64,000 nucleotides of DNA from a virus. The stretch spans positions 64,001-128,000 of the IMG/VR virus record IMGVR_UViG_3300011980_000002; one strand, written 5' to 3'. The position numbers were made by a program, and so were the translations under genes. Positions 6,351 to 49,430 of this stretch are shown here, piece by piece. Position 1 is the stretch's first letter. Every line of letters begins with the position of its first letter. The notes beneath the pieces are model-generated. The model saw nothing but the letters and a program-made list of their open reading frames with translations. It did no database searches and had not been told where the DNA came from.

Positions 6351-6483
6351 TTTAAATTTTGTATAAAAAGTTGTTATATTTGTTGAATTTTCTATGACTT
6401 TAGACTAGAAAATTACTTCCAATTTAATAACAAGTATATAAAGATTAACAAAAAATAAATAAAATAAGGAGATATGTAAACTG

Positions 6484-8356: not shown

Positions 8357-9703
8357 ATGTTTGAAATAGACAATCTCTATTATGATGATATACAGAGAGA
8401 ATATTCTATGCTTGAACAAGCTTTAGATATTACTGTTAAAAAAGCAGATATAGCGTATGAATACGTATCTAATATGTCAAATGTTTCCATTATGGAAGCT
8501 GATTTGAACATAATGGGTGAATCTGGAGATTATAATGATTTAGCACACCTATATGAAGATGCAACAGCACAGGCTGGTGAGAAGAAAAAAGGAATAATTG
8601 TAACCATTATCGAGGGTATTGGTAAATTTATTTCAGGTCTTCTTGAAAAACTCACAGGTAAGGTTAGTGATAAAAAACTCGAAGAGTTAGCAAATGACCC
8701 AGATGCACCTAAGCAAATAAAAGTTAAAAAAGACCCTAATAAGTTTTTAAAAATGGGTGCAGATATGCTTAATGGTATAATGGATAAAATTAAGCCTGGA
8801 TTTACTTCTAAAGACGAAGATGGTAATAAGAAGTTCGATTTTGTTAGAACTCTTATAACTGGAACAGAAGCACTTGCAGTTGCAGGTGGTGCGTATTTGG
8901 GAGTTAAAAATGCACCAAATATTAAAAAAGGTTTTACCAGCTTGATTGATAAGGGTAAGGATATAATAAACAATCTTAAAGGTAGATTGAAAAGTGCTAA
9001 AGATGAAACTGAAATAGAAGTCATCAATGCGGCAACACATGCTACTCAAAATGCTATAAAGTGTATAGGTCAGAATATGACTGATATTTTCATAGCACCT
9101 TTTATGGGTAATGTGATTGATGCTGAATTCAAAGAGGTTAATACCGAGGAAGATCAGAAGAGTGGTAAAGATAAAAAGGGTGCTGATAAAGGTGATGGTA
9201 AACAATTGCCAGCCGAACAAGAATACAAAACATATAATGGTGGTAGACAAGGTGAACTTCCCCATAAGAAACAAAAAGGACTTCCTGGACCTGGACAAAC
9301 AGCAAGAGATAAAGCTAGACCTAATGAGATGGTTGGTGGAATTGTATACGCCGATGGAGCTAAGCGTAAAAAACCTGATGCACTTCCCGGACCTGGACAA
9401 ACAGCAAGAGATAAAGCTAGACCTAATGAGATGGTTGGTGGAATTGTATACGGTGATGGACCCACTAATTCAAGTAAATATCGTGAAGGTAAGAGGAAGT
9501 TAGCAAACAGAAATAATCGAAGAAAACATCGTAAAGGTGAAATGAATATGGATGAGTCCGCATTAGATATATTTGACGAGTTCAGTTCATATTTAGATGA
9601 TTATGAATATGAGTCTGTTTACGACGATTATGAAACGGACACTTATTCAGATGATTATGAATATGAGTCTGTTTACGATGATTATGACAACTATCTGAAT
9701 TAA
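8357..9703 (+). CDS. Family-F paralogue 1 (putative internal virion/ejection protein)
   Basis: N-terminal leader SIMEADLNIMGESGD followed by helix KKKGIIVTIIEGIGKFISGLLEKL. The block KPGFTSKDEDGNKKF..LITGTEALAVAGGAYLG is shared with the next gene. Has a 34-aa tandem repeat and a D/E/Y-rich C-terminal tail. Confidence 0.7.
   Translation: MFEIDNLYYDDIQREYSMLEQALDITVKKADIAYEYVSNMSNVSIMEADLNIMGESGDYNDLAHLYEDATAQAGEKKKGIIVTIIEGIGKFISGLLEKLTGKVSDKKLEELANDPDAPKQIKVKKDPNKFLKMGADMLNGIMDKIKPGFTSKDEDGNKKFDFVRTLITGTEALAVAGGAYLGVKNAPNIKKGFTSLIDKGKDIINNLKGRLKSAKDETEIEVINAATHATQNAIKCIGQNMTDIFIAPFMGNVIDAEFKEVNTEEDQKSGKDKKGADKGDGKQLPAEQEYKTYNGGRQGELPHKKQKGLPGPGQTARDKARPNEMVGGIVYADGAKRKKPDALPGPGQTARDKARPNEMVGGIVYGDGPTNSSKYREGKRKLANRNNRRKHRKGEMNMDESALDIFDEFSSYLDDYEYESVYDDYETDTYSDDYEYESVYDDYDNYLN
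9281..9460 (+). repeat. In-frame tandem duplication, period 102 nt (34 aa)
   Basis: cttcc(t/c)ggacctggacaaacagcaagagataaagctagacctaatgagatggttggtggaattgtatac occurs at 9281 and 9383, encoding LPGPGQTARDKARPNEMVGGIVY twice. Confidence 0.9.
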
Positions 9704-9712
9704 ATAATATAT

Positions 9713-9765
9713 TGAATAACGAACCATAATTGCTTCAATTTATCGTAATTATGGTTCGTTATTCA
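9713..9765 (+). terminator. Terminator-like hairpin
   Basis: Perfect 19-bp stem tgaataacgaaccataatt/aattatggttcgttattca. The downstream T-run is weak. Confidence 0.55.
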
Positions 9766-9795
9766 AATTTCAATAATTTTAGAAAGGATATATTC

Positions 9796-11025
9796 ATGAC
9801 ATACAATCAAATAGTTAATTCATATGTTAATAAAATGAATATGTTGAACCTTGAGTATATTAATAATGATTGTGATTTTCATATGGAATCTGTTTTATAT
9901 GAAAACGATATATTGTATACTGAAGATGTTGAAAACTCCATAAATAATGCAGTTAATAAAAAAAGAAATATAATTCTCAGAATAGTAGATGGTATAATTT
10001 CGTTCATCAATAAAGTAGTTGGTGATATTGGAAAGATGTTCAATAAACAAGTTGAAAGTGATTTTAATAACGCACCTGATGTAGAAACTAAATTTGAAAC
10101 GAACCCTACCGAGACTCTTAGTAAGTGTGAGAGTACACTTGGTAAAGTTGTTGGATTTTTGAAACCTGGATTCACTACAAAAGATGAAGAGGGTAATAAG
10201 AAGTTTTCTCCATTGAAAACACTGATTACTGGGTTAGAGGCTACCGCTGCCGCTGCTGGTACATATATGATTGCAAAAAAATCATTACCTACAATAAAGG
10301 AAAAAGCAACAAAGATTCTTAATGATTGTAAAGGATTAACGAGCAAGTTCAAAGAGGAATCATTCGAGGATAAAATGCTTAAAATTCTTGAGGATAAAAA
10401 TAAAACCGACGATGAAAGAATTAAAGCTGCTAAAGCATTATATAAAAATGACCCAGAAATGCTTAAAAAAGTTAATGAGTTAGAGAAAGAAATAAAAGCT
10501 AATCGTATGACTCCTAGAGAATTTAAACAGGGTATACGAAAAGCAAAAAGTGATAGAGATATAAATCAGAGACAGAATGATAGAGACTATCGTGCAGCAG
10601 TTGCTGGAATGGCTATGGATGGTAAAAACTGGAAAGAAAAACAGGAAGAACAAAAAGCAGAAGTTCAGGCTAAACTGAAGGCTAAAATGGCTAAAGTTAC
10701 CGGCACAAATCCTGAAAATGCAAAAAAAGAAAGTTGGTTTGCTAGATTGTTCGGTAAAGCTAAACAACAATCTGTTCAGAAAATGAATGATCAACAAATG
10801 GCAGCAGAGGCTATTAGTCAGACATCTAAGTATGCAGCAGACGTTCTTAGAGATGCTACAAGGGCTATTTTAAATATAGCAAGAGGAAAAAGTAATAAAT
10901 CTGATAAGGACGAAGTTAAAAACGAACATGTGTCATATTATAATGATGATTGTTATTTTGATTTATATGAATATAATAATGATTATATAGATTATGATAT
11001 AGACAATATGATAACAAACTTATAA
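9796..11025 (+). CDS. Family-F paralogue 2
   Basis: ATG 9796 with tagaaagga box is preferred; ORF-track start 9730 lies inside the upstream hairpin. Has HMESVLYEND..KKRNIILRIVDGIISFINKV and KPGFTTKDEEGNKKF..LITGLEATAAAAGTYMI. D/Y-rich tail. Confidence 0.7.
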   Translation: MTYNQIVNSYVNKMNMLNLEYINNDCDFHMESVLYENDILYTEDVENSINNAVNKKRNIILRIVDGIISFINKVVGDIGKMFNKQVESDFNNAPDVETKFETNPTETLSKCESTLGKVVGFLKPGFTTKDEEGNKKFSPLKTLITGLEATAAAAGTYMIAKKSLPTIKEKATKILNDCKGLTSKFKEESFEDKMLKILEDKNKTDDERIKAAKALYKNDPEMLKKVNELEKEIKANRMTPREFKQGIRKAKSDRDINQRQNDRDYRAAVAGMAMDGKNWKEKQEEQKAEVQAKLKAKMAKVTGTNPENAKKESWFARLFGKAKQQSVQKMNDQQMAAEAISQTSKYAADVLRDATRAILNIARGKSNKSDKDEVKNEHVSYYNDDCYFDLYEYNNDYIDYDIDNMITNL

Positions 11026-11053
11026 ATTATAACGAAAGGATAAATGATTAGTT

Positions 11054-12010
11054 ATGGCTAATAATTTTCTAACTAAATATGATGTTCATGACATTAAAAC
11101 TTCTTTTAATATAAAAAAAGTTATGTCTGAGCATAGTATAAATTGTAAAAAAGCTGAGCTTAAAGTATTGACTGAATCTGGTACAGATGAGGACTTCTAC
11201 TACTTATACCAAGAATCTATGAGTGATGCTATTGGAAAACTTGGAGAGATAATAGATGATATAATAAAGAAATTCATTGAATTTTGTAAAGATGTACAGA
11301 TACAGATATTATCAAAGATTAACTCAGTTGAATTTAAGTCAAATGTGCAAAAAATAAACGATAAGCTTAAGTTCAATCCATTCTTAAGAAGTAAATCACA
11401 GACAGTTAGTGATTTTAATCCCAAGATGAAAGATTATATAGAAGCTTCTTCAAAACTTGCTAAGATGGTTGCAAAACTTAAAAGTGGTAATTCAGTATCT
11501 ACTGAAATTGACAACTTTGCAGACTGGTTTGATGATTTAGCTGAGAAGCAAATGAAACAGAGAAAATTGAGTAATGCTGCCATATTTGCAACACTTAAGA
11601 GTTTAATGGAGAAGGTTGATGGTGAAATTAAGAAGATTCGCGATGATGCTAGGGATCTTCTTACAGATGTCAAAGGTATCAAACCTAAAAAAGATGATGA
11701 TGATAACGATATAAATCTTAAATCATCAGCTACTAAACTTTGTAATTATATATCAAGAGTTAGTAGAGCAGCTATAAGGCTCCGTGTAACGACATTAAGT
11801 GAGTATCTTGCAGTATGTAAGAGAGAAATTCTTAATGCTAAAGAAGAAGATGTTAAGAATGAGTCATATGAATATGAAGATAGTTATGATTCGGATTACG
11901 AATATGATTACAGTAATGACGATGATTCTTCAGATGATGATTCAGATGATGATTATGAATACGAATCTGGATATGATTACGAAGACAATTACGATGAGTA
12001 TGATTTTTAA
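11054..12010 (+). CDS. Family-F paralogue 3
   Basis: Leader LKVLTESGTDED, then helix DAIGKLGEIIDDIIKKFIEF. Extreme D/E/Y/S C-terminal tail ending DEYDF. Confidence 0.65.
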   Translation: MANNFLTKYDVHDIKTSFNIKKVMSEHSINCKKAELKVLTESGTDEDFYYLYQESMSDAIGKLGEIIDDIIKKFIEFCKDVQIQILSKINSVEFKSNVQKINDKLKFNPFLRSKSQTVSDFNPKMKDYIEASSKLAKMVAKLKSGNSVSTEIDNFADWFDDLAEKQMKQRKLSNAAIFATLKSLMEKVDGEIKKIRDDARDLLTDVKGIKPKKDDDDNDINLKSSATKLCNYISRVSRAAIRLRVTTLSEYLAVCKREILNAKEEDVKNESYEYEDSYDSDYEYDYSNDDDSSDDDSDDDYEYESGYDYEDNYDEYDF

Positions 12011-12015
12011 ATAAT

Positions 12016-12060
12016 AATATACGGTAATAAGGTATGTCCTTATTACCGTATATTATTTAT
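12016..12060 (+). terminator. Rho-independent terminator
   Basis: Perfect 17-bp stem aatatacggtaataagg/ccttattaccgtatatt with a 5-nt loop. Confidence 0.7.
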
Positions 12061-12110
12061 CCGTATTTTCTATATATATATCGATATATTATTTATATGT
12101 AAAATAAAAT
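12057..12110 (+). promoter_or_regulatory. Conserved promoter-like motif (class seen 8 times in window)
   Basis: ttatccgtattttctatat..gatatattatttatatgtaaaataaaat sits immediately after a terminator and about 25 nt before the SD of 12136. See the findings for the alignment. Confidence 0.45.
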
Positions 12111-12135
12111 AATATACGAAAGGAGATTCATAATT

Positions 12136-12363
12136 ATGAAATCTCAATTAAAACTAACATCTTATCTCGTTTCATCTTACGAAAGAGAAATGCCATTTAT
12201 ATTGGCATCTTCTGATATAACATTCATCAGATCTGCAATTGATAACATAAATAGCGTTATCAATAATGCATATTATGATGAGTATGATGAAAGAGAGTGT
12301 AACCTTAATTACAAACTAATTAAAATGTGGTCAGAAATGACATACAAATTGATTAGTTTGTAA
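12136..12363 (+). CDS. Small hypothetical protein (75 aa), self-contained cassette
   Basis: Own promoter-like motif, SD gaaaggag and own terminator. Interrupts the family-F array. Confidence 0.6.
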   Translation: MKSQLKLTSYLVSSYEREMPFILASSDITFIRSAIDNINSVINNAYYDEYDERECNLNYKLIKMWSEMTYKLISL

Positions 12364-12371
12364 TTAAGTTT

Positions 12372-12410
12372 AAAAAGTAATGCATGTGCACATTGTGCAT
12401 TACTTTTTTT
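12372..12410 (+). terminator. Rho-independent terminator
   Basis: Stem aagtaatgca/tgcattactt followed by T7. Confidence 0.7.
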
Positions 12411-12487
12411 GAAAATTGTTACTATTAATCGTATAACTTTATATTTTTTAATATAGTATATTAAAAAATATAAAGGAGACATTAGTA

Positions 12488-13015
12488 ATGAATGAAAAAC
12501 TAAAAGAACTTATTGATTATGCTAAGAAGGGGAGATCTGAAACTGTAAATGGATATTATACTAAACTTAACAAGTTGAAAGAATCTAATAAAGATAACAA
12601 GCTTACTGATAGTTCTATTGTTAAGAATTGTCCAAATTATAGTGATACTCTCAAGAGATATGAGGACTTGTTTAATATTATTATAGATATTGAAGACGCT
12701 CATAATGAGAAAGAAAGTTTTAATGATGAGATAAAGCGTTATCGTGAAACTTATAATAATATGATGTCAGTTGGTATCGTTTGTAATAAGCAAGAAACAT
12801 ATAGCACGTGTATGAATAAAATTAAAGATGGTATAGAACATCTTGATACATTATTCGATGCTGCTGAACATAATGCAAAATCATTATCTGATAATATTTC
12901 AGATAGTGATAGAATATGTAATTTATTACTAGGACATTATAAGAATTATATCAAGAGTCAAAAATTGGAAATTGATGCTTGGATAAATGCAGTTACAGAT
13001 GCTCTTAAAAATTAA
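12488..13015 (+). CDS. Hypothetical protein (175 aa)
   Basis: SD aaaggag 8 nt upstream of the ATG. Helical K/E/N-rich sequence with no recognised motif. Confidence 0.6.
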   Translation: MNEKLKELIDYAKKGRSETVNGYYTKLNKLKESNKDNKLTDSSIVKNCPNYSDTLKRYEDLFNIIIDIEDAHNEKESFNDEIKRYRETYNNMMSVGIVCNKQETYSTCMNKIKDGIEHLDTLFDAAEHNAKSLSDNISDSDRICNLLLGHYKNYIKSQKLEIDAWINAVTDALKN

Positions 13016-13030
13016 TAAAGTTTCTTAATT

Positions 13031-13067
13031 TAACCCTATAGACAATTTAGTCTATAGGGTTATTTTT
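13031..13067 (+). terminator. Rho-independent terminator
   Basis: 13-bp stem taaccctatagac/gtctatagggtta plus a T-run, then tttttatccgaatttc. Confidence 0.75.
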
Positions 13068-13139
13068 ATCCGAATTTCTTATAAATCGTTTAGATTACAC
13101 AGTTATTTAAAGTTAAATTCAATAGAAAGGGAATAGTTT

Positions 13140-14153
13140 ATGGATAATACATTGCTATATTCTATACACTCAGATGTGATGATTGAAGACACTTTACTGT
13201 TCATAGACAGCTTATCTGATATATACTATGAAGACGGAGAAGCTTCAAATAATGAGGTTGTTGATGAAAAAAGTAAAAATATGTTTAGACGAGCATTTGA
13301 TGCTGTAATGAAATTTATAAATGGTCTTATTGAAAAAATTAAAACTCTTTTCCAAAGAATGGGTCTTAGTAAAGAAGAAAAGAAAGAGTTTGATGAGATA
13401 AGAAAAGCTATAATGGCTGACCCTGATATTAAAAATAAATCATTTACTGTAGACGATTACAGAAAAGCTAAAGCTCAGGAAGAAGCTATTATTAAAGAAA
13501 TGGAAGCCATACAAAAAGCTGCTGAACAGGCTGGTAATGATGAACAAGAAGCTGAAGTTATAGACAGAGGTATGGAAAAAGTTAAAGGTATGATGAGTGG
13601 TGTTGTTGATGTTATGGGTACTGCTGGTAAATCTATTGCTACAACTATAGGTGCACAACAGATACTCCATATGGCAGAATCTAATAGAAACTTTGCTCAA
13701 ATGGTTTATGGTATGCTTGAAAATGAAGAGGGTCTTACAAAACAACTTGAAGATGCTATAGGTAATAAGCAAACTAATAAGTTTAAAAAAAGCATTAAGT
13801 CTTGTACCAAATGGTTGTCATGGCATAAGTTTAAGGCTATGATGTTTGGTACTATATGTAAAGATATGAGTAAATCATTTAGTCATACTATAAAAGATTT
13901 AAAAGAATTAACAAATCCTAAGAATTCTATAGGTGCACACTTAAATCGTGCGAAGCATCTCAATATGGTTAATAATGTTGTTGGGGGAGTTAATCAAAAA
14001 TATGGTACAGATTTTAATCTTATAGACATTGCAAAAGCCGGTGTTCAAGTAAAACATGCTATAGATGATACTAAATCAACAGTATCTAAAGCTAGTGGAT
14101 TTGTCAATAGAACTGTGAATAATTTTAAGAATAGGAATAATAATAATGCATAG
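13140..14153 (+). CDS. Family-F paralogue 4
   Basis: VMIEDTLLFIDSLSDIYYEDGEASNN, then helix RRAFDAVMKFINGLIEKIKTLF. Gly/Ala-rich hydrophobic segment VVDVMGTAGKSIATTIGA. Confidence 0.65.
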   Translation: MDNTLLYSIHSDVMIEDTLLFIDSLSDIYYEDGEASNNEVVDEKSKNMFRRAFDAVMKFINGLIEKIKTLFQRMGLSKEEKKEFDEIRKAIMADPDIKNKSFTVDDYRKAKAQEEAIIKEMEAIQKAAEQAGNDEQEAEVIDRGMEKVKGMMSGVVDVMGTAGKSIATTIGAQQILHMAESNRNFAQMVYGMLENEEGLTKQLEDAIGNKQTNKFKKSIKSCTKWLSWHKFKAMMFGTICKDMSKSFSHTIKDLKELTNPKNSIGAHLNRAKHLNMVNNVVGGVNQKYGTDFNLIDIAKAGVQVKHAIDDTKSTVSKASGFVNRTVNNFKNRNNNNA

Positions 14154-15072
14154 TTTAGATGAAGCAAGTATTAGATATGATATAATAACAGAATCGTTAG
14201 ATATCGACTTTTACAAAAATGATGCAATACTTAGTACTTGTATATTATTAGAGTCTGATAATACAAGTAGCGTTGTTGAAAAACGACATAATATACTAAA
14301 AGAATTTATAAAAGTCGTTATTGAAAAAATTCAAAAATTGATAGATTTCATTAAATCTAAATTTAATAAGGATAGAATAGATGTCATTAATAACATCAGT
14401 AAAGAAAATCCAAGAGCTACTATTACAGTTAGCAAGGACCCGAATGTGGTTATACAAGCTGCAAATGAGTCTATAAAAGAAATTGAAACTGCAATTTCTA
14501 AACAGAAAAAAGGTATTTTCAGAAAAGAAGATGGAAGTATTAATGTTAGTAAAGTTATATATACAGCAGTTGGTGCTGCAACAGCAACTACTATCGGTAT
14601 TATAGTGGTACCTAAACTTATAAATACTATAAATGGACTTCTTGGAAAACTTAAAAATCTTGGTAGAGATGTTATGACAAATATTGACCAAGATAAAAAT
14701 TCGTTCAATAAGGCTAAAAGTAAAACTCCAGCTAAAACTTCATTAGCTAGTAAGGTTGTTTATAATGTCGGTAAGGGAATTGGGTTTAGTGTAGGTAATA
14801 CTGTGAAAACATCTGTTACAACTGCTGCGAATAGAGGATTTGTACCAACCTTCAATATATCCCTAAATTTACCGGACCCAAAAATGTATCAACAACAGAT
14901 GCAAGCACAAAATGAAATTGTTAAGGCTATCTCTAATACCACTAAGGTATTGGAAACTACTTTAAATAGGGATTTATTGAATAACCCAGATATCAATAAA
15001 GTTGCAAATGAAGTATCTGATGAAAAAAGTGATATGAATGATAAACAAACATCTCAACAAAATAATCAATAA
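14146..15072 (+). CDS. Family-F paralogue 5
   Basis: The start overlaps the previous stop (ATGCATAG). IITESLD..CILLESDNTS, then ILKEFIKVVIEKIQKLIDFIKSKF. Hydrophobic VIYTAVGAATATTIGIIVVP. Confidence 0.65.
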   Translation: MHSLDEASIRYDIITESLDIDFYKNDAILSTCILLESDNTSSVVEKRHNILKEFIKVVIEKIQKLIDFIKSKFNKDRIDVINNISKENPRATITVSKDPNVVIQAANESIKEIETAISKQKKGIFRKEDGSINVSKVIYTAVGAATATTIGIIVVPKLINTINGLLGKLKNLGRDVMTNIDQDKNSFNKAKSKTPAKTSLASKVVYNVGKGIGFSVGNTVKTSVTTAANRGFVPTFNISLNLPDPKMYQQQMQAQNEIVKAISNTTKVLETTLNRDLLNNPDINKVANEVSDEKSDMNDKQTSQQNNQ

Positions 15073-15090
15073 TAAGTTTGGAGATAAATT

Positions 15091-16341
15091 ATGGCAAAAA
15101 TAATCTCTGAAGTTCGTAATATAAAAGATAACACTTTTGAATATGAAAAGCGTCTTCAAAGTCCTTACAATAGACTAATTGATAAGGCTCCAACACCTGT
15201 AACGTATTTTCATATTAATGATAATGAGTCTACAGTTAATGAAGGATATCAAGATATTGAAGAAATTATTGGACCCAAATCTCCATTAAGATTTGATAGA
15301 ATTGAGGGATTTCCTTTATACGGAGTCCCTCAAATTAATCCAAATATACAAGAAGATGATCAAGGAATAAATATAACATTTGAAGCTGAATGTTTTATTT
15401 TACCACATACGATAAAACCTAATCCAAATGATTTCTTCTTAATCGATGTATTGGATATTCATGATGTATACATATTCAAAATTACAGATATTGCGTATGA
15501 TAATATTCACCCAGACAATTTTTATAAGACACAGTTTAGGTTAGAATTAACTTCTAAAGAGAAATTAGCATACTTAGAAAAACAAGTTATAAATAACTAT
15601 ACTTGTATTATAGATAATATTGGTACCGATAGTCATTGTATTATAGAAACTGATAAGTTTACTAAATATCAGAAAGTTAAAGATACCTATGATGATTTAG
15701 TAAATCTTTATGTTAGTATATTTTATAATGAAAAATATAATTGCTTTTTAGGTGAATATCCATGTAATAAAAAACTCTACGACCCTTATATGGTTGAGTT
15801 TGTTAATAAGTGGAATCTATTCAATAGTAAAGATAAAATTAATTCACTTATCATTAGTCAAGAAATTGATGATAATAAGTTTAAATTAAAATATGAGAAA
15901 TCTGTGTGGAGATTTATTGAGAAAAATGATTATAGTTTATTAAATAAATTCATTTTTTATATTTATCGAGCAGATACTCTGAAGTATACTACATTTGCAT
16001 TATATAGAGATGCTACTGTAAATATACTAGATATTCCTTTATCATTTTATAGTGACACTGACACGAGATGTATATTTAATGATGAGTTTATTAATAATAT
16101 AAAAGATAATAAAGAGTGTAAGAGTTCTTATGGTAATTTATTAAAGAAGTATATACTAAAAGAAAAATTAGATATAAATTCTATACCATTAGATATTAAT
16201 GAAACTTTATATAGCTTAGAAGCAGATGTCGAATTTTTCTTTATAACTCCAATGATTCTTTATATTATGAAAAAGATAATGAAAGATAGTTTTAAGTATA
16301 GTATTAGTTATAATACTATGAATGATAATAAAATGTATTAA
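15091..16341 (+). CDS. Hypothetical protein (416 aa), probably virion-associated
   Basis: Long ORF embedded in the family-F structural block. No motif recognised. Confidence 0.55.
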   Translation: MAKIISEVRNIKDNTFEYEKRLQSPYNRLIDKAPTPVTYFHINDNESTVNEGYQDIEEIIGPKSPLRFDRIEGFPLYGVPQINPNIQEDDQGINITFEAECFILPHTIKPNPNDFFLIDVLDIHDVYIFKITDIAYDNIHPDNFYKTQFRLELTSKEKLAYLEKQVINNYTCIIDNIGTDSHCIIETDKFTKYQKVKDTYDDLVNLYVSIFYNEKYNCFLGEYPCNKKLYDPYMVEFVNKWNLFNSKDKINSLIISQEIDDNKFKLKYEKSVWRFIEKNDYSLLNKFIFYIYRADTLKYTTFALYRDATVNILDIPLSFYSDTDTRCIFNDEFINNIKDNKECKSSYGNLLKKYILKEKLDINSIPLDINETLYSLEADVEFFFITPMILYIMKKIMKDSFKYSISYNTMNDNKMY

Positions 16342-16407
16342 TACGAAGAATTGTTTTTTTTTTTGTATGAATTATATTTAAATTACGAAAGGAAACAATA
16401 ATTAATT

Positions 16408-17409
16408 ATGTATGATGATTTATATTTAGACAATTTAGATTTTGACATATTTATAGAGTCTACAGAACTAATATTTGAAAGTGTTAGTTGTAATAATGAA
16501 ATATCTTTATTATTAGAAGATGGTAATGATAATAAGAAAAAGAATATTATCATGAGAGCCGTTGATGCAATAATGAAAAAGATTAGAGAAATTATAGATT
16601 GGATAAAATCTAAATTATTTGGTGGTAAAAATAAGAAATATGAAGATTTTCTAAAACTTGCAGATAGTAAAGTAAGTGGATTATCTGTGGAATTTGATAA
16701 ATCTCCTAAGAAAGTTTATGAATTATATTCTGATATATTTAAAGCAATTTCTAAGAATTATGATAAATTATCAGGAAATGATAATTCCAAATTTATCGAA
16801 GAGGTTAAAGAGAAATTAAGTAGAGATATTAGCAAAGAATATTTATCTCCAAAAGAATGTATAGATTTATTTTACAAATATAATAAACTATCTTTAGACT
16901 ATAAGGGATTAAGTGATAAGATTAGTAATTATATTAAGAGTAAAGCTAATAGTGGAATAGATTGCTCGCAAGAACAAAAAGCTTTATCTTTAATTACTAG
17001 ATTAATGAATGATATAAGAAATAATATGAGCAAGATATCACCTACAACTATATCTAGTAATAATAGTGTCATAAGTAAAGTGAAGACATGGGCTAATGAC
17101 AATCCTGATGAAGCCGCTTTACTTATCGCAAACCTGAGTGCACTTGGATTAGTTACAGGAATGGCTGTTGGTGTTAAAGCCATGAAAGGTGCTGATGATA
17201 GGATTAAAAATAGTATGAAAGAACATGATGCTCGTATGAAAGCTGAAAAAGAGGTATTAGATAAGAAGCATAAAGATAATATGAAAGTTCTTGATGAGAT
17301 GCATAGAAAGATTGATGATGTAATAAAAAATGTTGATTTAGGTGATACTGAAGCAGTTAAAAAAGCTGAAAAAGAAATGGAAAGAATAAGGAAACAATAT
17401 AGACATTAA
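16408..17409 (+). CDS. Family-F paralogue 6
   Basis: IFIESTELIFESVSCNNEISLLLEDGNDNKKKNIIMRAVDAIMKKIREIIDWIKSK. Hydrophobic ALLIANLSALGLVTGMAVGV. The upstream 55 nt is nearly identical to that of 20460. Confidence 0.7.
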   Translation: MYDDLYLDNLDFDIFIESTELIFESVSCNNEISLLLEDGNDNKKKNIIMRAVDAIMKKIREIIDWIKSKLFGGKNKKYEDFLKLADSKVSGLSVEFDKSPKKVYELYSDIFKAISKNYDKLSGNDNSKFIEEVKEKLSRDISKEYLSPKECIDLFYKYNKLSLDYKGLSDKISNYIKSKANSGIDCSQEQKALSLITRLMNDIRNNMSKISPTTISSNNSVISKVKTWANDNPDEAALLIANLSALGLVTGMAVGVKAMKGADDRIKNSMKEHDARMKAEKEVLDKKHKDNMKVLDEMHRKIDDVIKNVDLGDTEAVKKAEKEMERIRKQYRH

Positions 17410-17428
17410 TATGGTAAGGAATTTTTTT

Positions 17429-18250
17429 ATGATTAATAAATATGACATAGAAACCGAATTATTTATAGAATCTATGGAATTATTATTTGCTAGAATTGAT
17501 AGTGAAAATTCAATCTCATTATTACTTGAATCTGGTGATAATCCTAAAAGAGAAAGTGTATTATTGAAAGCTATATCTGCTATAGTTAAGAAGATAAATG
17601 AAATTCTCAATTCAATTACAGATAATTTATCTGGCAAAGATTCTGATAAATACTATAGGTTTATAAAGCAAGTAAGTGGTAAGATTCCGGATTGTAAAAT
17701 AGCAGTTTCAGTGGATATTAGTAAGTTATATGAGGTATATTCTAAATCTCATAAAATTATTCTTGATAACTATAGAACTTCTAAAGATTATAGTTATATA
17801 GATGAGGTTGATAAATTGTTTACAAATGAAATCAATAAAAGTACCACGGTAACTTTAAATGAAATTGTATTATTATTTAACAAATATAAAGACTTAGCTA
17901 ATAAATACGATAATCTCACATATGATATAGAAAGATTGATATATAGGAAATCTAAATCTAATGAGAGCGTTAGTGATTTAAAAAGTGCATTGCTTAAAAT
18001 TACTAAGATTGCAAATGGTATAAGAAACACTGTATCTAAGATAGCACCTGAAAAAGTAATAAGAACTACAGAATTTAAGAATAGTATTAAATCTTCAATA
18101 GATAACGATACTATTAAAACTAATGCAATTCCAGATGGTATCTTAAATGCTATGAGGATACACGGTGAACATACCAGAATGCATGATGAAAATAACGAAA
18201 TGCATAATCAGAATCATCAATTACATTTAGCAATGAATGGAATGATGTAA
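17429..18250 (+). CDS. Family-F paralogue 7
   Basis: ATG 17429 (SD aaggaa) is preferred over 17411. LFIESMELLFARIDSENSISLLLESGDNPKRESVLLKAISAIVKKINEIL. Confidence 0.65.
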   Translation: MINKYDIETELFIESMELLFARIDSENSISLLLESGDNPKRESVLLKAISAIVKKINEILNSITDNLSGKDSDKYYRFIKQVSGKIPDCKIAVSVDISKLYEVYSKSHKIILDNYRTSKDYSYIDEVDKLFTNEINKSTTVTLNEIVLLFNKYKDLANKYDNLTYDIERLIYRKSKSNESVSDLKSALLKITKIANGIRNTVSKIAPEKVIRTTEFKNSIKSSIDNDTIKTNAIPDGILNAMRIHGEHTRMHDENNEMHNQNHQLHLAMNGMM

Positions 18251-18266
18251 TAAAGGGAATATCTAT

Positions 18267-19010
18267 ATGAATTATGATGATATAGAATATATTAAAAATG
18301 AAATATTTATAGAAAAATCCATTTTATATATTGAAAAATATAATAGTGATTTAAGTATATCATTATTACTAGAAGACGGTGATACTGGTTCTGGTGGCAT
18401 TGCTACTATTATAAATAAATCATTAGATAAATTGGAAGGTTTATATAATTCTCTCATTAATAAGTTTTTTAATAATAAGAATCGTCAGTTTGAAAGTTTC
18501 TTATTAAAGATTGGTAAGAAAATATCTAAAGAAGATTTTTCTATTTCATTTAATATAAATCCTGAAAAATTATACGAAAATCAACTTGACAGTATCAAAC
18601 TTATTAGTGATAATTATGATAAACCTGAAAATGTTAATAAGTTTCTTGATGTAAATACAGTTGTACCAGACTTAGGTAAACCTACAGATTTAACAATTGA
18701 AGAATGTATAGATATATTTCATAAGTTTGAAAGATTATCAATTTTATGTGAGAAAACTTCAAAGACTATGTATAAATCTATCATGGTAAGAATAAAAAAT
18801 CTTGGTGAAAGACAGCATGTTTCTAATGTTGGATTATATGAAATGATACATATAATGAATATTATTCATATAAATATTAAAAGATTTAGTCCAGAAGCAA
18901 TATATAATAATAGTAAATTTAAATATGCTGTTAAAAAACTTGTAAATAAAGATCCTAATAATATCAAACTTATACCAAATAAGTTTAGAGATGATTTTGA
19001 TTTAAAATAA
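18267..19010 (+). CDS. Family-F paralogue 8
   Basis: IFIEKSILYIEKYNSDLSISLLLEDGDTGSGG. The remainder aligns with 16408 and 17429 (EECIDIFHKFERLS versus KECIDLFYKYNKLS). Confidence 0.65.
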   Translation: MNYDDIEYIKNEIFIEKSILYIEKYNSDLSISLLLEDGDTGSGGIATIINKSLDKLEGLYNSLINKFFNNKNRQFESFLLKIGKKISKEDFSISFNINPEKLYENQLDSIKLISDNYDKPENVNKFLDVNTVVPDLGKPTDLTIEECIDIFHKFERLSILCEKTSKTMYKSIMVRIKNLGERQHVSNVGLYEMIHIMNIIHINIKRFSPEAIYNNSKFKYAVKKLVNKDPNNIKLIPNKFRDDFDLK

Positions 19011-19056
19011 AACCTATTTATTAAAAAGAATAAAATGAAAGGATTATTATTTTAAA

Positions 19057-20346
19057 ATGAAAAAAATAGATGCTGTAAGATATACTACAAAAGAATTTAA
19101 AAAATGGGTTAACTATACAGAAAAAAATTCAAAAGCTGGATTGGGAAATACTACATATGATAGTCCAGGTCCATATAATATGAATGCAGGGTCTAATAAC
19201 TATACAGTATTTGCTGATTACTATAGGCAAAAAACCGGAATATCTGTTCAAGGAATGCCATGGTGTTTTAGTGAAGGTAATATAAAACTTGAAGATTCCT
19301 ATAAGGATATTTCAGATATACACCCTGGTGAAAAGGTATTAAGTGGTATTGGTAATAGATATAATATCGTTATATCTAACACACCACATGATGAATATGT
19401 TATAAAAGTATCATCTAATAAGACTAATCCGTTGATAGGGACTCCAGACCATCCAGTATACTCCATTAAGAATAATAATGAACCTCAATTAAATCCACTT
19501 AGTGATTTATCGATAGGTGATATTTTACTGATATATTCATATGAATATAATGATGAATCATCAATAACTTATAATGGGATACAATACTCAAAATCTATTA
19601 TAACAGATATTGAGGTATTGAAAGATAAACAAACTGTTTACACGTTAGCAGTTGATGGTGATCATACATATACAGTTAATAATGTAGCAGTTCACAATTG
19701 TGATAGCTTTGTTGATACTGTATTCATACATTTGTATGGTGTAGAGAGAGCTAAAAAGTTATTAAATGGATTTTCTGCGTATACCCCTACATCTGCTGGA
19801 TACTTTAAAGCTGTTAGCAGGTGGTTTAGTAGACCTGAGCCTGGAGATATAATATTCTTTAAAAATAGTGAAAGAATAAATCATACTGGATATGTACATG
19901 ATGTATCTGGTAATACAGTTTATACCGTAGAAGGAAATACTTCATCAGGTAATAATGTAGTAGTTGCTAATGGTGGTTGTGTTGCTCTTAAATCATATGA
20001 TATACATAATCCAAGGATAGCTGGATATGGTAGACCTGATTATGAAGGTGTATTAAGAGACTTTAATCCTGAAGGATTTGTCGAAGGTTGGTTTAAAGCA
20101 GCAGATAATGTTCGTTGGTGGTATCAGTTTAGTAATGGAACATATGCTAAAAATAATGGTACGAATAACGGATGGTATAAGATTAAAAATAAATGGTATT
20201 TATTTGATACTAATGGTTATATGTTAACAGGGCATCAGACTATTGGTGGACAAGAATACTATTTATGTGAAGATCCAAATAAGGTTGAAGGTGCATTGAT
20301 GAAAACTGATGAAAATGGTGCACTAACTATTTGGGAAAGTGAATAA
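19057..20346 (+). CDS. Peptidoglycan hydrolase (CHAP/NlpC-P60-type amidase or peptidase) with C-terminal cell-wall-binding repeats, interrupted by a mini-intein
   Basis: The exteins read ..QGMPW|CDSFVDTVF..PGDIIFF..INHTGYVHDV..TVEGNTSSG..IAGYGRPDY, a typical CHAP layout. The C-terminus carries GW..WYY/WYLFD..GYMLTG repeats of the choline-binding/CW_binding_1 type. Confidence 0.8.
   Translation: MKKIDAVRYTTKEFKKWVNYTEKNSKAGLGNTTYDSPGPYNMNAGSNNYTVFADYYRQKTGISVQGMPWCFSEGNIKLEDSYKDISDIHPGEKVLSGIGNRYNIVISNTPHDEYVIKVSSNKTNPLIGTPDHPVYSIKNNNEPQLNPLSDLSIGDILLIYSYEYNDESSITYNGIQYSKSIITDIEVLKDKQTVYTLAVDGDHTYTVNNVAVHNCDSFVDTVFIHLYGVERAKKLLNGFSAYTPTSAGYFKAVSRWFSRPEPGDIIFFKNSERINHTGYVHDVSGNTVYTVEGNTSSGNNVVVANGGCVALKSYDIHNPRIAGYGRPDYEGVLRDFNPEGFVEGWFKAADNVRWWYQFSNGTYAKNNGTNNGWYKIKNKWYLFDTNGYMLTGHQTIGGQEYYLCEDPNKVEGALMKTDENGALTIWESE
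19264..19698 (+). mobile_element. Class-1 mini-intein (145 aa, Hint domain, no homing endonuclease)
   Basis: Starts with Cys (CFSEGNIKLED), has block B GTPDHPVY (TxxH) and blocks F/G VYTLAVDGDHTYTVNNVAVHN, and is followed by +1 Cys. The flanks join to the CHAP signature PWCDSFV. Confidence 0.85.
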
Positions 20347-20459
20347 TGTCCTAATTGGCATATATTAATATTAAAGATAAAAAATAGTATAGAAAAAAAA
20401 AATTGTTTTTTTTTTTGTATGAATTATATTTAAATTACGAAAGGAAACAATGATTAATT

Positions 20460-21305
20460 ATGTATAATGATTTGTATATAAAAGCTTTGAATGATGTGAT
20501 ATTCTGGGAATCTATAGATTTAGCATTATCTTCAATAGATATGAATGACGGAATAGCCGTTCTATTAGAGGATGGTGAAACTAATTCTAAACAAGCTAAT
20601 ATCGTCATGAGAGCGGTAGATGCTATAATGAAAAAGATTAAAGAAATTATAGATTGGATAAAAGGAATATTTTCCGATAAAAGTGAACAGAAATATATAG
20701 ATTTTCTAAAACAATTGGAGTCTTATGCTAAGGATACTCGTATAGAGTTTGGAAAAGATCCATCACAAGCATGCAAACGATATATAGATATACTTAAAAT
20801 TGTATCAAAAAATTATAATAGAAATTATGATAAAGATGATTTTAATAACGATGGTTATTGGTATTCGGACATAAATAACCTTTTGAAAAAGGAAGTTGGA
20901 AGTTCTGAATTAACAATATCAGACTGTCTAAAATTCTCAGAGAAGTTCAAAAATCTTAGTTATGAGTATAAAAATCTATCTGATAAGCTATATTCTACAA
21001 TTAAAACTAAGAGTAAGGCTGGGATAGACACTAAGAATGATCGAAAACTATTAACTTTAATCGGAAAGATTGAAAGTGACATTAGAAAACAAATAATGAT
21101 GCTAACACCTAGTATCATAAGTAGGAAAGGTTCGGTAAAAGAAAAACTTAAGTTGCTTTTAGCCGATCCTAGAACTAGTAAGCTTGCGTATATAGCAGCA
21201 TCCTTAGGGATAGGTGTTGTAGCAGGTAAAGCGTATATAAATAAAATGGATAAAACCCGTGAACAGAGAATACGATATGAAGAACTTGAAAAGCTTGTAT
21301 TTTAG
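20460..21305 (+). CDS. Family-F paralogue 9
   Basis: IFWESIDLALSSIDMNDGIAVLLEDGETNSKQANIVMRAVDAIMKKIKEIIDWIKG. Hydrophobic LAYIAASLGIGVVAG. Confidence 0.7.
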   Translation: MYNDLYIKALNDVIFWESIDLALSSIDMNDGIAVLLEDGETNSKQANIVMRAVDAIMKKIKEIIDWIKGIFSDKSEQKYIDFLKQLESYAKDTRIEFGKDPSQACKRYIDILKIVSKNYNRNYDKDDFNNDGYWYSDINNLLKKEVGSSELTISDCLKFSEKFKNLSYEYKNLSDKLYSTIKTKSKAGIDTKNDRKLLTLIGKIESDIRKQIMMLTPSIISRKGSVKEKLKLLLADPRTSKLAYIAASLGIGVVAGKAYINKMDKTREQRIRYEELEKLVF

Positions 21306-21449
21306 GGTTTTATAGCTCAGTACTAAAATGATTGGAATCACTGTATTCTGATAGGGATACAATTATGAGATATTAATATTGTGATATATATATATATATC
21401 GTAATAGAGATAGGAAATGTGTAATATTAACAAGAAAGGAAAACATAAA

Positions 21450-22481
21450 ATGAATGATTTTTATTTAGAAATTCTTAACGATGATATATTTTGGGAATCT
21501 ATGGATTCAACATTATCTTCAATAGATATGAATGATGAAATAATAACTATGTTAGAAGATGGAGAATCTAATTCTAAACAGGCTAATATTATCATGAGAG
21601 TAGTTGATGCTATAATGAGGAAAATTAGAGAAATCATAGATTGGATAAAAGGGATATCATCTAATAAAAATGAACAGACTTATGCAGATTTTTTAAAACA
21701 ATTAGAATCTCGTGCTAGAGATATTCGTATAGAATTTGATAAGGATCCATCATATGCGTATACACAATATGTCGACATATTCAAAATCATATCAAAAAAT
21801 TATGATAAAAGTGGATCTAATGATAATAAAGACTGGTTTTCAGATATAGATGATATTTTAAGTAGAGAACCGAAAAACTCAGAATTAACAATATCAGATT
21901 GTCTAAAATTATCAACAAAGTTCAAAGACCTTAGTAATAATTATAAAAATTTATCTGATAAAGCATATAATATAATTAGAACTAAAAGTAAGAATGGTGT
22001 TGATACCAAAGATGAGCGAAGAGTACTAACTATAATCGGAAAGATTGAGACGGATATCAAGAAACGAATGATGATGTTAACACCTAGTGTCCTGAGTAAG
22101 AAAGGTTCTATAAAAGAGAAACTTAAATTAGTTTTGGGTGACCCAAGAACACCAGGTAAACTTGCACAACTTGCATTATCCTTAGGAATAATTGCAGCAA
22201 GTGCAATATATAAAAAAACAAGCGATGCTATCACGAAGAAGAAAAGATTTGATGATGCGATTTCTGATGTAATGGACAATAGAATAGAGAACGATATGCT
22301 CTTAAATAAAGTTAAAGGTGGATATAATGTTAGAGATGCTGATGTTAAGAAAAAACATGGTCGTTTAGATGAGGTGTATATAAAATATCAAAATTCCGAT
22401 GGGGATAATAAATATAATAAATATAGTAGAAAAGATTATAAAGAAAAATATAAAGGCAATGATCTTTGGCAAATATATTAA
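21450..22481 (+). CDS. Family-F paralogue 10
   Basis: ATG 21450 with agaaaggaaaac is preferred over 21417. IFWESMDSTLSSIDMNDEIITMLEDGESNSKQANIIMRVVDAIMRKIREIIDWIKG. Confidence 0.7.
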   Translation: MNDFYLEILNDDIFWESMDSTLSSIDMNDEIITMLEDGESNSKQANIIMRVVDAIMRKIREIIDWIKGISSNKNEQTYADFLKQLESRARDIRIEFDKDPSYAYTQYVDIFKIISKNYDKSGSNDNKDWFSDIDDILSREPKNSELTISDCLKLSTKFKDLSNNYKNLSDKAYNIIRTKSKNGVDTKDERRVLTIIGKIETDIKKRMMMLTPSVLSKKGSIKEKLKLVLGDPRTPGKLAQLALSLGIIAASAIYKKTSDAITKKKRFDDAISDVMDNRIENDMLLNKVKGGYNVRDADVKKKHGRLDEVYIKYQNSDGDNKYNKYSRKDYKEKYKGNDLWQIY

Positions 22482-22525
22482 TCGTTATTTATCAGAAGAC
22501 TAATACTATGTATCAAATCATGAAT

Positions 22526-22561
22526 AATAGAGTATATAGGAATATTCCTATATACTCTATT
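22526..22561. terminator. Bidirectional terminator between convergent genes
   Basis: Perfect 15-bp stem aatagagtatatagg/cctatatactctatt around the palindromic loop aatatt. Confidence 0.7.
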
Positions 22562-22570
22562 TAATATTAT

Positions 22571-22894
22571 CTATTTATCATTTTCTTGTTTAAAATATTT
22601 ACGAAGCTCGTTTTTATCTTCACACCTTTTAACAAACTCTTCTGGTGACAGTTCAATTGACATTTTTTGTAATGCTGATACATAATTTAACATCATATTA
22701 CCAATATTGCTATTATTTTTATATTCTTCACTGAGCTCTTTCTCAACCTTATCTCTAATTGGTTTTGAGAACAGTTCCATAGCGTAACTTAGGTCTTGAT
22801 AATCATTTAATAGTTTCTCACCATCAGCAAGTGCTTTACTTGCTTTTGCATATGAAACATCAATAGGATTTGAGTTCTTGTAATCTTTCAACAT
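22571..22894 (-). CDS. C-terminal fragment ORF of family-F paralogue 11
   Basis: ATG at 22894 has no SD. The frame is continuous with 23108..23320 through a single TGA. Confidence 0.35.
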   Translation of the reverse strand: MLKDYKNSNPIDVSYAKASKALADGEKLLNDYQDLSYAMELFSKPIRDKVEKELSEEYKNNSNIGNMMLNYVSALQKMSIELSPEEFVKRCEDKNELRKYFKQENDK

Positions 22895-23107
22895 CTTATT
22901 ACAGTCGTCTAATTGCTTGCTAATATCCTTATTCCTAGCATTCCTAGCTTCTTTAAGTTTAGCATATGCTATTTTCGAATTTTTTATTAGAAGTTCTGGA
23001 TCATTTCCGTATTTAGCAATATAAGCTTTTTTATATTCTCTTTCATATTGTCGTATGAGCCTATCAATTTTACGAGTATGTGCATCTTTAAAAATATTTT
23101 TTTTAAC

Positions 23108-23320
23108 TCATTTACATATAGCTCTTATCTTTTCAACTATAGTGTTTATAACTTTCATAAAAATATTTTCTTTATTAGAACTATCATTTGAAGATTCTAA
23201 CAACAATTCTACAGATGATTCCATAGATAGTCTATCAATGATTAATTGAATATTTTCAATAAATATTTCGTTACTTAATATGATACAATCCTTGTTTTTT
23301 TTTTTGCATAATTGTATCAA
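23108..23320 (-). CDS. N-terminal fragment ORF of family-F paralogue 11
   Basis: ORF-track entry beginning at TTG. Carries the family leader. See the pseudogene entry. Confidence 0.35.
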   Translation of the reverse strand: MIQLCKKKNKDCIILSNEIFIENIQLIIDRLSMESSVELLLESSNDSSNKENIFMKVINTIVEKIRAICK

Positions 23321-23321
23321 C

Positions 23322-36226: not shown

Positions 36227-36318
36227 TAAGGATTTCTATGTAACTTATGATAAATCCTTATTTTCTCATCAAAACAAGTATATAATCAAAAATTAAGATA
36301 TAATGAAAGGAGATATAT

Positions 36319-40608: not shown

Positions 40609-41460
40609 ATGACGAAAAATTTCATAAATATGGACATATTCATAGAAGCTAAAAACTTCTATGTAGATAGACTTAATGATATCGATAATGTATATTATGA
40701 TTATGAATATTCCCTATTAGAGTCTAAGTTAAATTTTGATTTCTTTGATGATTACTTATTAACAGAGGCAACTGATGACGCTGTTAATGAAAAAAAGAAA
40801 CAAGGAATTTTAGCTAAGATTGGTGATGCAGTAATGGGTGCAATAAAGAAACTAATTGGAATTATGGACACATTCGTACAAAAATTTCAAGAGTTTGTCT
40901 GGAGTAGAAAGAGTGATGATAGGAAGATAGATGAACTCATAAGATTACATCCAAGACTTAAAGATGAAATAGTTGCACATAAGAAAGATTTAAATTTACA
41001 AGATATAAAATCTGTTAATGATATTCTTAATGGTACTTATAGTGTAATTAATCAGATTAATAAAGGTAAAATAAGTGAACCTGAAGCTAAGAGTAAGTTT
41101 GATAAACTTGTAGATTTTGCTAAGAATAAAGCAACACCTATATTATCAACTGCTACTGCTGTTATTACATTTACTGTCGCAGCTAATGAATTACTTCCTA
41201 AGATGACTAAAGCTAAATTAGATTATGAACAGAATAAAGCTTCACTGATGCAGTTAAAAAAAACGGCTGATGAGGCTGCAAAGAATAGTAAAGACGCTGG
41301 AACCATAAGTAAATCAAGATTAATATCTTCTTTGATAGTAGGTGCTTGTAGTGCTGCCGCGTTTATTATTGGAAAGAATTCAGCTACTATGAATAAACTT
41401 AATAGTGCAGTAAATAGAACTGTTGCAAAGTATGAAAATAAAGAACCGGAATCTAAATAA
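40609..41460 (+). CDS. Family-F paralogue 12
   Basis: MDIFIEAKNF..DDYLLTEATDDAVNEKKKQGILAKIGDAVMGAIKKLIGIMDTFVQKF. Hydrophobic ATPILSTATAVITFTVAA and LISSLIVGACSAAAFIIG. Confidence 0.65.
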   Translation: MTKNFINMDIFIEAKNFYVDRLNDIDNVYYDYEYSLLESKLNFDFFDDYLLTEATDDAVNEKKKQGILAKIGDAVMGAIKKLIGIMDTFVQKFQEFVWSRKSDDRKIDELIRLHPRLKDEIVAHKKDLNLQDIKSVNDILNGTYSVINQINKGKISEPEAKSKFDKLVDFAKNKATPILSTATAVITFTVAANELLPKMTKAKLDYEQNKASLMQLKKTADEAAKNSKDAGTISKSRLISSLIVGACSAAAFIIGKNSATMNKLNSAVNRTVAKYENKEPESK

Positions 41461-48136: not shown

Positions 48137-48146
48137 TATTCTATAT

Positions 48147-48188
48147 AAAATATAACCTGAGTTTAATACTTGGGTTATATTTTTTTTA
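48147..48188 (+). terminator. Rho-independent terminator
   Basis: Stem aaaatataacc/ggttatatttt plus a T-run. Confidence 0.6.
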
Positions 48189-48238: not shown

Positions 48239-48263
48239 TAGTATATATTAAAGGAGAAAAAAT

Positions 48264-49376: not shown

Positions 49377-49388
49377 TGGATAACTTAA

Positions 49389-49429: not shown

Positions 49430-49430
49430 A

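Follow-up and report, generated by a model that had tools for sequence, protein, structure and literature searches.

A twelve-member paralogue family beside the capsid gene of a jumbo phage related to AR9 and phiR1-37: candidate protease-processed internal head proteins

The internal proteins of phage T4 are basic, are packaged into the head and are injected with the DNA; their loci are hypervariable among T4-like phages, and one of them, IPI*, acts against a restriction system. Giant phages characteristically carry paralogous internal head proteins, and one described set forms the Pfam family PF12699 (phiKZ gp92-95, gp97, gp162 and gp163; gp53 and gp54, the 'paralog family A', of SPN3US). In the sections of the literature that deal with these paralogues, they are described as proteolysed, packaged, injected and associated with a lipid vesicle (PMC5694885; bioRxiv 10.1101/2024.03.24.586471). 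Here we describe twelve genes in a stretch of viral DNA of 64,000 nucleotides (nt), hereafter the window, which covers positions 64,001 to 128,000 of the IMG/VR record IMGVR_UViG_3300011980_000002, a 223-kb metagenomic contig. With a probability of roughly 65%, the twelve genes encode paralogous internal head proteins that are made as protease-processed precursors. The best reading is that this family is distinct from, but analogous to, PF12699 of phiKZ and the internal proteins of T4, and that it is absent from Pfam and PHROGs.

Window genes are named by g and their start position, S1 to S8 denote subfamilies (ortholog groups), and L003, L005 and similar labels denote related contigs. The window is AT-rich (G+C content about 27%). 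Its sheath, tube, portal, capsid, head-tail joining and DNA polymerase proteins are 21-31% identical to proteins of Bacillus phage AR9/PBS1 and Yersinia phage phiR1-37, which makes the window phage a remote member of the AR9/phiR1-37 jumbo-phage lineage. The paralogue array begins immediately 3' of the major capsid gene g6484 and encloses the head-tail joining gene g15091, and homologues of the AR9-type portal, sheath and tube are found near it. The twelve members, with lengths in amino acids (aa) and with an arrow marking each predicted cut, are as follows.

8357..9703, plus strand: g8357, S2, 448 aa; predicted sites NIMGE55↓S and HLYE67↓D; basic middle and acidic Tyr-rich tail behind MNMDE400↓S
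9796..11025, plus strand: g9796, S3, 409 aa from the ATG supported by a ribosome-binding site (RBS); predicted site ILYTE↓D; acidic aromatic C-terminal tail
11054..12010, plus strand: g11054, S4, 318 aa; predicted sites VLTE41↓S and LYQE54↓S; acidic tail (net -24) behind VKNE270↓S
13140..14153, plus strand: g13140, S5, 337 aa; predicted sites VMIE16↓D and IYYE31↓D
14146..15072, plus strand: g14146, S6, 308 aa; predicted sites IITE16↓S and ILLE36↓S; transmembrane-grade segment 137-156, hydropathy 1.95
16408..17409, plus strand: g16408, S1, 333 aa; predicted sites IFIE17↓S and LLLE37↓D; helix 41-70, hydrophobic segment 238-256
17429..18250, plus strand: g17429, S1, 273 aa, without hydrophobic segment
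18267..19010, plus strand: g18267, S1, 247 aa, without hydrophobic segment
20460..21305, plus strand: g20460, S1, 281 aa, recent duplicate partner of g21450
21450..22481, plus strand: g21450, S1, 343 aa; (TA)7 tract upstream (21385-21398)
22571..23320, minus strand: twelfth member, S1-type, 249 codons, in-frame TGA at codon 71
40609..41460, plus strand: g40609, S8, 283 aa; predicted sites SLLE38↓S and LLTE53↓A; hydrophobic segments 175-192 and 238-255

When 51 window proteins were compared all against all by BLASTP, a tight core was formed by g16408, g17429, g18267, g20460 and g21450 (E 1e-10 to 1e-115) and a pair by g8357 and g9796 (E 2e-23), and the links of g11054, g13140, g14146 and g40609 were weak. 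The eleven plus-strand proteins align in register over about 130 columns, the sole invariant residue being a Glu. HHalign was run between ortholog-group profiles that had no sequences in common, in one round with close orthologues only and in another with distant orthologues added. With close orthologues only, nine members were joined at 57-99%, and the best links of g11054 and g40609 were 59% and 12%, respectively. The enriched profiles linked S1 to S2 (95%), S5 (92%) and S6 (97%), S2 to S3 (99%), S4 (99.3%), S5 (97%) and S6 (97%), and S4 to S5 (97%) and S8 (95%); each subfamily has at least one link at 95% or above, and 110-192 columns were aligned. Five non-family neighbours, namely g12488, g15091, the capsid gene, g19057 and the open reading frame (ORF) 23322-24170(-), gave 0%, and two of these controls, g12488 and the 282-aa ORF 23322-24170(-), are themselves Lys/Glu-rich and helical.

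In six related genomes, a hidden Markov model (HMM) of the N-terminal module matched all array proteins and nothing else, and each of the matches was N-terminal (E 1e-6 to 1e-24). The same kind of scan over the 249 six-frame ORFs of the window gave exactly 12 matches and no thirteenth. Judged by these profile comparisons, all twelve genes are homologous and constitute one paralogous family, so that the twelve-member family of the preliminary description, which had been drawn up from the sequence without database searches, was borne out in 12 of 12 cases. Its start coordinates agree with the spacing of the RBSs, and the interruptions of the array that it had listed were found to be a 175-aa gene, the 416-aa head-tail joining protein and an intein-containing CHAP endolysin. 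The family had also been said to fill about a quarter of the window; this holds for the span including the interrupting genes (23%) but not for the twelve genes themselves, which sum to 11.5 kb or 18%.

All members have an acidic leader, a Φ-x-E↓(S/D/A) site and an amphipathic helix, and a second conserved site, as in DIFIE↓S, often precedes the one at the end of the leader. The hydrophobic moment of the helix is 0.50-0.84, as against 0.28-0.40 in shuffled sequences. The Gly/Ala-rich hydrophobic segment is transmembrane-grade in g14146, g16408 and g40609 only, borderline in g20460 and g21417, mild in g8357 and g9796, and absent in g11054, g17429 and g18267, and its position varies between subfamilies. 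Thus, the common architecture proposed earlier stands for the leader with its invariant Glu and for the amphipathic helix, but the hydrophobic segment is not universal. Since it is present in only about half of the members, the argument from this segment for ejection or membrane insertion is weak.

A feature beyond that first account is the acidic aromatic C-terminal tail, which in the S2, S3 and S4 proteins, distant relatives included, follows at least one x-x-E↓S site. The leaders have a net charge of -2 to -12 and the tails of -8 to -24, whereas the predicted mature parts carry +5 to +16 and are basic in every member (isoelectric point, pI, 9.0-9.7). This polarity of acidic leader and basic body was seen in no other window protein. 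In the AlphaFold2 model of g16408 (predicted local distance difference test, pLDDT, 80), E37↓D38 falls in a loop between the helices 4-36 and 41-70. The model of g13140 is all-helical but of low confidence (pLDDT 59.6) and serves as a consistency check only, with the site in a low-confidence linker; in both models the predicted site is a low-confidence loop between two helices.

According to the phiR1-37 record, the mature capsid protein starts at Ser87, after MLQE (MLQE86↓S87). The positions aligned with this site read ILQE↓S in AR9 and LLSE112↓S in the window capsid protein, which has four cleavage-like motifs within its first 112 aa. The invariant Glu of the family has the same L-x-E context as the phiR1-37 capsid maturation site. 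The strict form of the motif was found in 8 of 11 members (0.6 expected). In its relaxed form, it occurred 24 times in the first 70 residues, where 4.4 occurrences were expected, and 6 times beyond them, where 16.5 were expected, eight members having none there. Enrichment in the leaders together with depletion in the bodies suggests that the body is protected from cleavage, which would weigh against a role as degraded scaffold. The earlier statement that no function can be read from the sequence is too pessimistic for the processing mechanism, but it holds for the final role.

The comparison of AlphaFold models by Foldseek, which the preliminary description had proposed, placed the AR9 protein A0A172JI05, annotated 'Virion protein', among the top hits for both the g16408 and the g13140 model (probability 1.0; template-modelling (TM) scores 0.41/0.48 and 0.34/0.39, respectively). 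We take A0A172JI05 to be AR9 g096, because this was the sole AR9 'virion protein' of 268 aa found. AR9 g096 was also the only match among 180 AR9 ORFs to the family HMM built from distant relatives (E 7e-8), and a second HMM gave 8e-7; HHalign of single subfamilies against it was weak, at most 20%. Synteny of the AR9 genes g051 (an M48 protease) to g058 with the array was not supported, as HHalign gave at most 1.5% and g058 is unrelated to g41481.

Among the window members, only g11054 scored above threshold against Pfam PF12699 (32.5 bits; gathering threshold 27). No link to phiKZ gp89, gp90, gp92, gp93-95 or gp96 emerged from HHalign. When 1.84 billion representatives were searched exhaustively by profile, 104 relatives came up, which have the common signature AELKV-x-x-ESGTYDDL-x-x-LYEAA...KKKGII. 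When 69 distant relatives were scanned, neither Pfam nor PHROGs held a family containing them, no match to PF12699 was seen, and PHROGs results were inconsistent for the window members too. No match was obtained by tblastn when g11054, g16408, g41481 and P0039, a consensus-like relative, were searched against 50,697 phage records, and Foldseek against the PDB gave nothing meaningful (best E 0.09, TM score below 0.2).

Packaging into the head, by analogy with the internal proteins of jumbo phages, had been suggested for the family from the outset. This suggestion gains from the position of the array after the capsid gene, the L-x-E site common to family and capsid protein, the motif enrichment in the leaders, the homology to AR9 g096 and the PF12699 score of g11054, all of which are indirect. 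We propose that the acidic N-terminal leader, of about 31-67 residues, probably directs the precursor into the assembling prohead, where the prohead protease would remove it at one to three Φ-x-E↓(S/D/A) sites. What remains would be a basic, all-α-helical body that begins with the amphipathic helix, and in S2, S3 and S4 the acidic aromatic tail behind its x-x-E↓S site would probably be cut off too. The trimmed basic bodies would stay in the capsid with the DNA and, by analogy with the internal proteins of phiKZ and T4, would probably be ejected with it; members with transmembrane-grade Gly/Ala segments may interact with the membrane of the host. The homology of the genes, their synteny and divergence, the placement and statistics of the motif, the charge polarity and the remote relationship to AR9 g096, annotated as a virion protein, are what the sequences show; that the proteins are cleaved, packaged, retained and ejected, or act at a membrane, is inferred.

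Several findings weigh against this proposal. The phage is known here from sequence alone, and a prohead protease gene was not found within the window. The TM scores of the Foldseek matches are only 0.32-0.49, and helical proteins match one another easily; the label 'virion protein' of g096 leaves head or tail location unspecified. The PF12699 match involves one member and 80 positions only (residues 176-256 of g11054 on 308-386 of the 387 model positions), and at E≤1 the model matched 4 of 43 family members, all of them S4 orthologues, and the orthologues of g11054 scored more weakly than g11054 itself. HHalign to phiKZ gp93/94/95 reached at most 5%, with a thin profile. AT-rich genomes tend towards basic proteins in general, which explains part of the basic pI. 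Finally, the enriched profiles were filled from the matches of a family-wide profile, and cross-assignment could have inflated the S2-S4 and S4-S8 links, which with close orthologues only were 59% and 2%; the best link of S8 anywhere in that round was 12%.

One alternative, that the resemblance is one of composition among Lys/Glu-rich helical proteins of an AT-rich genome and not one of homology, could account for the weak pairwise BLAST results outside the core and for the high HMMER bias score on the AR9 match. The preliminary description had named this outcome as one that would overturn the family, but the profile-profile comparison speaks against it, as the controls of similar composition, g12488 and ORF 23322-24170(-), stayed at 0%. 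In addition, the matches are in register, always N-terminal and 110-220 columns long, and the gene order is kept in distant phages. We regard a purely compositional resemblance as extremely unlikely. It is unlikely, too, that the proteins are scaffold or core proteins like T4 gp22, gp67 and gp68, which build the prohead interior, are then cut and expelled, and are absent from mature virions. Helical proteins encoded beside the capsid gene with several Glu sites in the leader would fit such a role, and no scaffold protein was identified in the window. However, the motifs are depleted in the bodies, being absent past residue 70 in eight members, AR9 g096, a homologue, carries an annotation that places it in virions, and g5400, an acidic 316-aa gene just upstream of the capsid gene, is a more conventional candidate, judged by its sequence only.

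The proteins could also belong to the tail or its lumen, for example as tape-measure-like or membrane-piercing accessory proteins. Among the 69 distant relatives, six match tape-measure PHROGs in the hydrophobic middle and two match the SseC translocator there, and g40609 is located downstream of the sheath and tube genes. These matches are weak and cover low-complexity hydrophobic stretches, however, and g40609-type genes are found within the array in distant phages. Propeptides of the prohead-protease type are moreover a head feature in T4 and phiKZ-type phages, as far as the relevant part of PMC5694885 describes them. We therefore consider a tail location improbable. Less probable again are non-virion proteins, such as membrane-associated proteins for host takeover, superinfection exclusion or lysis, encoded in the late region by chance; the transmembrane-grade segments of some members, the endolysin gene within the array and the hypervariability of the family would agree with this. 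Yet about half of the members are without a hydrophobic segment, the acidic N-termini are unlike signal peptides, the conserved Glu motif matches the maturation site of the capsid protein, and the AR9 homologue is annotated as a virion protein, which together render this explanation very unlikely. Internal head proteins remain our preferred reading.

No part of this otherwise conserved structural module changes as fast as the gene set. When the window is compared with its relatives, the capsid, joining and endolysin proteins are 91-99% identical (capsid 94-99%) and the family members 27-88%. The ratio of nonsynonymous to synonymous substitution rates (dN/dS) is 0.11-0.33 for family genes and 0.02-0.14 for backbone genes, and the synonymous rate (dS) of several family genes is 1.1-1.75 as compared with 0.11-0.45 in the flanks. 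The dN/dS values indicate that the family genes are functional, and the elevated dS and dN/dS point to allele replacement by recombination and relaxed constraint as the likely source of the divergence. DNA repeats record recent duplications in the array; g20460 and g21450 share 62% aa identity and 74-80% nt identity, with a dN/dS of 0.28. We propose that the array turns over fast through allele replacement and duplication, S1 likely through unequal recombination on a repeated upstream cassette.

The comparison of copy number among relatives, also suggested beforehand, showed that it varies (about 10 to 12 in fully sampled arrays). The window has six S1-type copies, and L003 and L007 have seven, the minus-strand copy being counted; within the clade, S3 is present or absent, and S6 and S7 alternate. 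S2 is the most widespread type among distant relatives. Two distant contigs, L015 and L017, have the order S2, S4, S5, S8 followed by a large g41481-like protein, with the orthologues of S4 (g11054) adjoining S2-type genes and those of S8 (g40609) coming straight after S5-type genes. S2, S4, S5 and S8 are ancient lineages, and S1, S3, S6 and S7 are clade-specific expansions. From the gene order in these two contigs, g40609 and its partner are read as the displaced end of an ancient array.

41481..44447, plus strand: g41481, non-family partner gene, 988 aa; N-terminal NTYTE35↓DGD

BLAST of g41481 found L015_12516 (2e-83) and L017_7625 (5e-44), and the gene adjoins an S8-type gene in distant phages too; no Pfam, PHROG or phage match was obtained for it. 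Because of the NTYTE↓DGD motif at residue 35, g41481 may be another protease-processed head protein. Two further observations concern single members. In g8357, a tandem duplication of 94 nt (90% identical; window 9265-9460) repeats the peptide LPGPGQTARDKARPNEMVGGIVY in the basic middle. The S6-type gene is split into ORFs of 126 and 183 aa in L010 (13714-14632) and L012 (10093-11011) and is intact (305 aa) in L009 and L011, which suggests a frameshift or pseudogene.

In every genome, a subset of the S1 genes, and these alone within the array, are preceded by a 60-nt cassette, ATTG-T(9-11)-GTATGAATTA..ACGAAAGGAAAC. It has equivalents in L003, L005, L007 and L010, with T-tracts of differing length, and we regard it as a putative promoter or 5' untranslated region and recombination substrate. 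The window holds two copies.

16309..16407, plus strand: S1 upstream cassette, copy 1, ATTG-T11-GTATGAATTATATTTAAATTACGAAAGGAAAC
20361..20459, plus strand: S1 upstream cassette, copy 2, A10-TTG-T11...

Four of the seven homopolymer runs of at least 9 nt in the window fall within the array. Directly upstream of S1-type genes there are (TA)n tracts, with 7 repeats in the window (21385-21398), and with 16 in L010 (18376-18407) as opposed to 9 in L011 (18373-18390), two contigs that are otherwise near-identical.

The strand-inverted member was located by the six-frame scan, which gave a strong match at 23108-23338(-); the gene runs from 23320 to 22571. Its conceptual translation matches S1 in HHalign at 98.9% (E 2.5e-17, 219 columns), with homology in both halves and within a single frame. 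The in-frame TGA at codon 71 (23110-23108), which the preliminary description had not mentioned, aligns with the conserved Trp of IIDWIK, and the same minus-strand gene is uninterrupted in L003 and L007. Recoding of TGA was rejected as the cause, since TGA serves as the stop codon of 4 of 50 genes and 113 TGG codons specify Trp; the simplest explanation of the interruption is a nonsense change (TGG→TGA), or else an error of assembly. The ORF 23322-24170(-) was rejected as the twelfth member, its HHalign value to the family being 0%. In the segment 23290-23345, the gene has a well-spaced RBS and an ATG, followed by C and an A11 run (23295-23305). The run is A11 in L003 (about 17700-17750) and A9 in L007 (about 17950-18000). 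The ATG and the family ORF are in different frames in all three genomes, and a run of A10 would bring them into frame in each. Transcriptional slippage, phase variation or a homopolymer assembly error are possible explanations.

A speculative extension, which we think unlikely to be correct, is that the array acts as a contingency locus of recombination-shuffled and individually switchable proteins injected along with the DNA. The S1 copies would then be switched or tuned by the hypermutable T9-11 tracts of the common cassette and by the upstream (TA)n tracts, and the minus-strand copy by the A9-11 run after its start codon, being in frame at A10 only. If so, phage populations could vary the repertoire of injected proteins, for instance against host defences.

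The other genes in and next to the array are these.

6484..8235, plus strand: g6484, major capsid protein precursor
12488-13015: g12488, non-family gene inside the array, 175 aa
g15091, inside the array: head-tail joining protein, 416 aa
19057-20346: g19057, CHAP endolysin with choline-binding repeats and intein, inside the array

g12488 is kept within the array in all related genomes (88-91% identity, dN/dS 0.13) and has terminators of its own on both sides. The insert of g19057 has a Pfam Intein_splicing match below threshold. L010 (19195-20049) encodes a 284-aa insert-free version of the endolysin, 98% identical across the common half, so that the intein-like insert is a mobile element which some strains have and others lack. 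An exact 13-mer, AACAAGTATATAA, occurs twice only, upstream of the capsid gene (6429-6441) and of the tail sheath gene (36273-36285). It fits the AR9 late promoter consensus AACA-(6N)-TA/G and was found before none of the family genes; a sigma-70 promoter scan was uninformative (137 found, 137.9 expected). Elsewhere in the window, a second and unrelated paralogue family is formed by the four adjoining genes g46204, g47078, g48264 and g49469 (46204-50506; pairwise BLAST E 0.006 to 3e-20). Two 413-aa ORFs in opposite orientation, 57358-58599(-) and 61387-62628(+), are 77% identical; their N-termini may resemble TnpB/OrfB proteins of the IS200/IS605 type.

If the proposed role is correct, the family adds a separate sequence family of the internal-head-protein kind in the AR9/phiR1-37-related lineage. 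It also adds a testable processing signature, with predicted N-terminal sites throughout and C-terminal sites in three subfamilies, and a link to a culturable model through g096 of AR9, a phage of Bacillus subtilis. The targeting sequence of T4 has already been used to load foreign proteins into capsids, and if the leader is a targeting signal, it could serve the same purpose in phages of the window type.

Like T4 IPI, IPII, IPIII and Alt, whose N-terminal targeting propeptide ends in L/I-x-E and is cut by the prohead protease according to the part of PMC5694885 that treats them, the present proteins combine a leader with a basic mature part (here predicted, pI 9.0-9.7, net +5 to +16). They differ in that the T4 targeting sequences have 10-20 residues and the leaders here 31-67, with one to three sites, and in that the T4 payloads are mutually unrelated whereas the bodies here are homologous over 110-220 residues. 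None of the IPI, IPII, IPIII and Alt families was among the Pfam or PHROG matches of members and relatives, and no similarity to them was detectable. The 'paralog family B' of SPN3US, compared by description only, resembles the array as a set of 20 jumbo-phage head paralogues whose numbers vary between phages; it differs in that no processing is reported for it in the pertinent account (PMC5694885).

In the sections cited here (PMC5694885; bioRxiv 10.1101/2024.03.24.586471), the PF12699 proteins appear as abundant tandem paralogues of the head gene region with conserved N-termini, their copy number differs between related phages (2-7), and their propeptides are cut off after Glu by the prohead protease, for which the window offers sequence proxies only. 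Tandem paralogues are present here too, in twelve copies, a higher number, of which ten are contiguous after the capsid gene. Only 1 of 12 window members matches PF12699, however, and this over the last 80 positions of the model. The leaders have 31-67 residues as against about 125 in SPN3US, and acidic C-terminal tails or an S1-type upstream cassette are not reported for PF12699 in the same sections. AR9 g096, finally, differs from the family in being the sole copy found in the 170 kb of AR9 examined, compared with twelve here, and in not being located beside the AR9 capsid gene. It is nevertheless a direct remote homologue: this 268-aa protein matches the family HMM over the whole post-leader length, is a fold match for two models, and has the same N-terminal layout as the family, ...ELLNE↓GLSNGLKKIIKKLSELIQRIKEWI.

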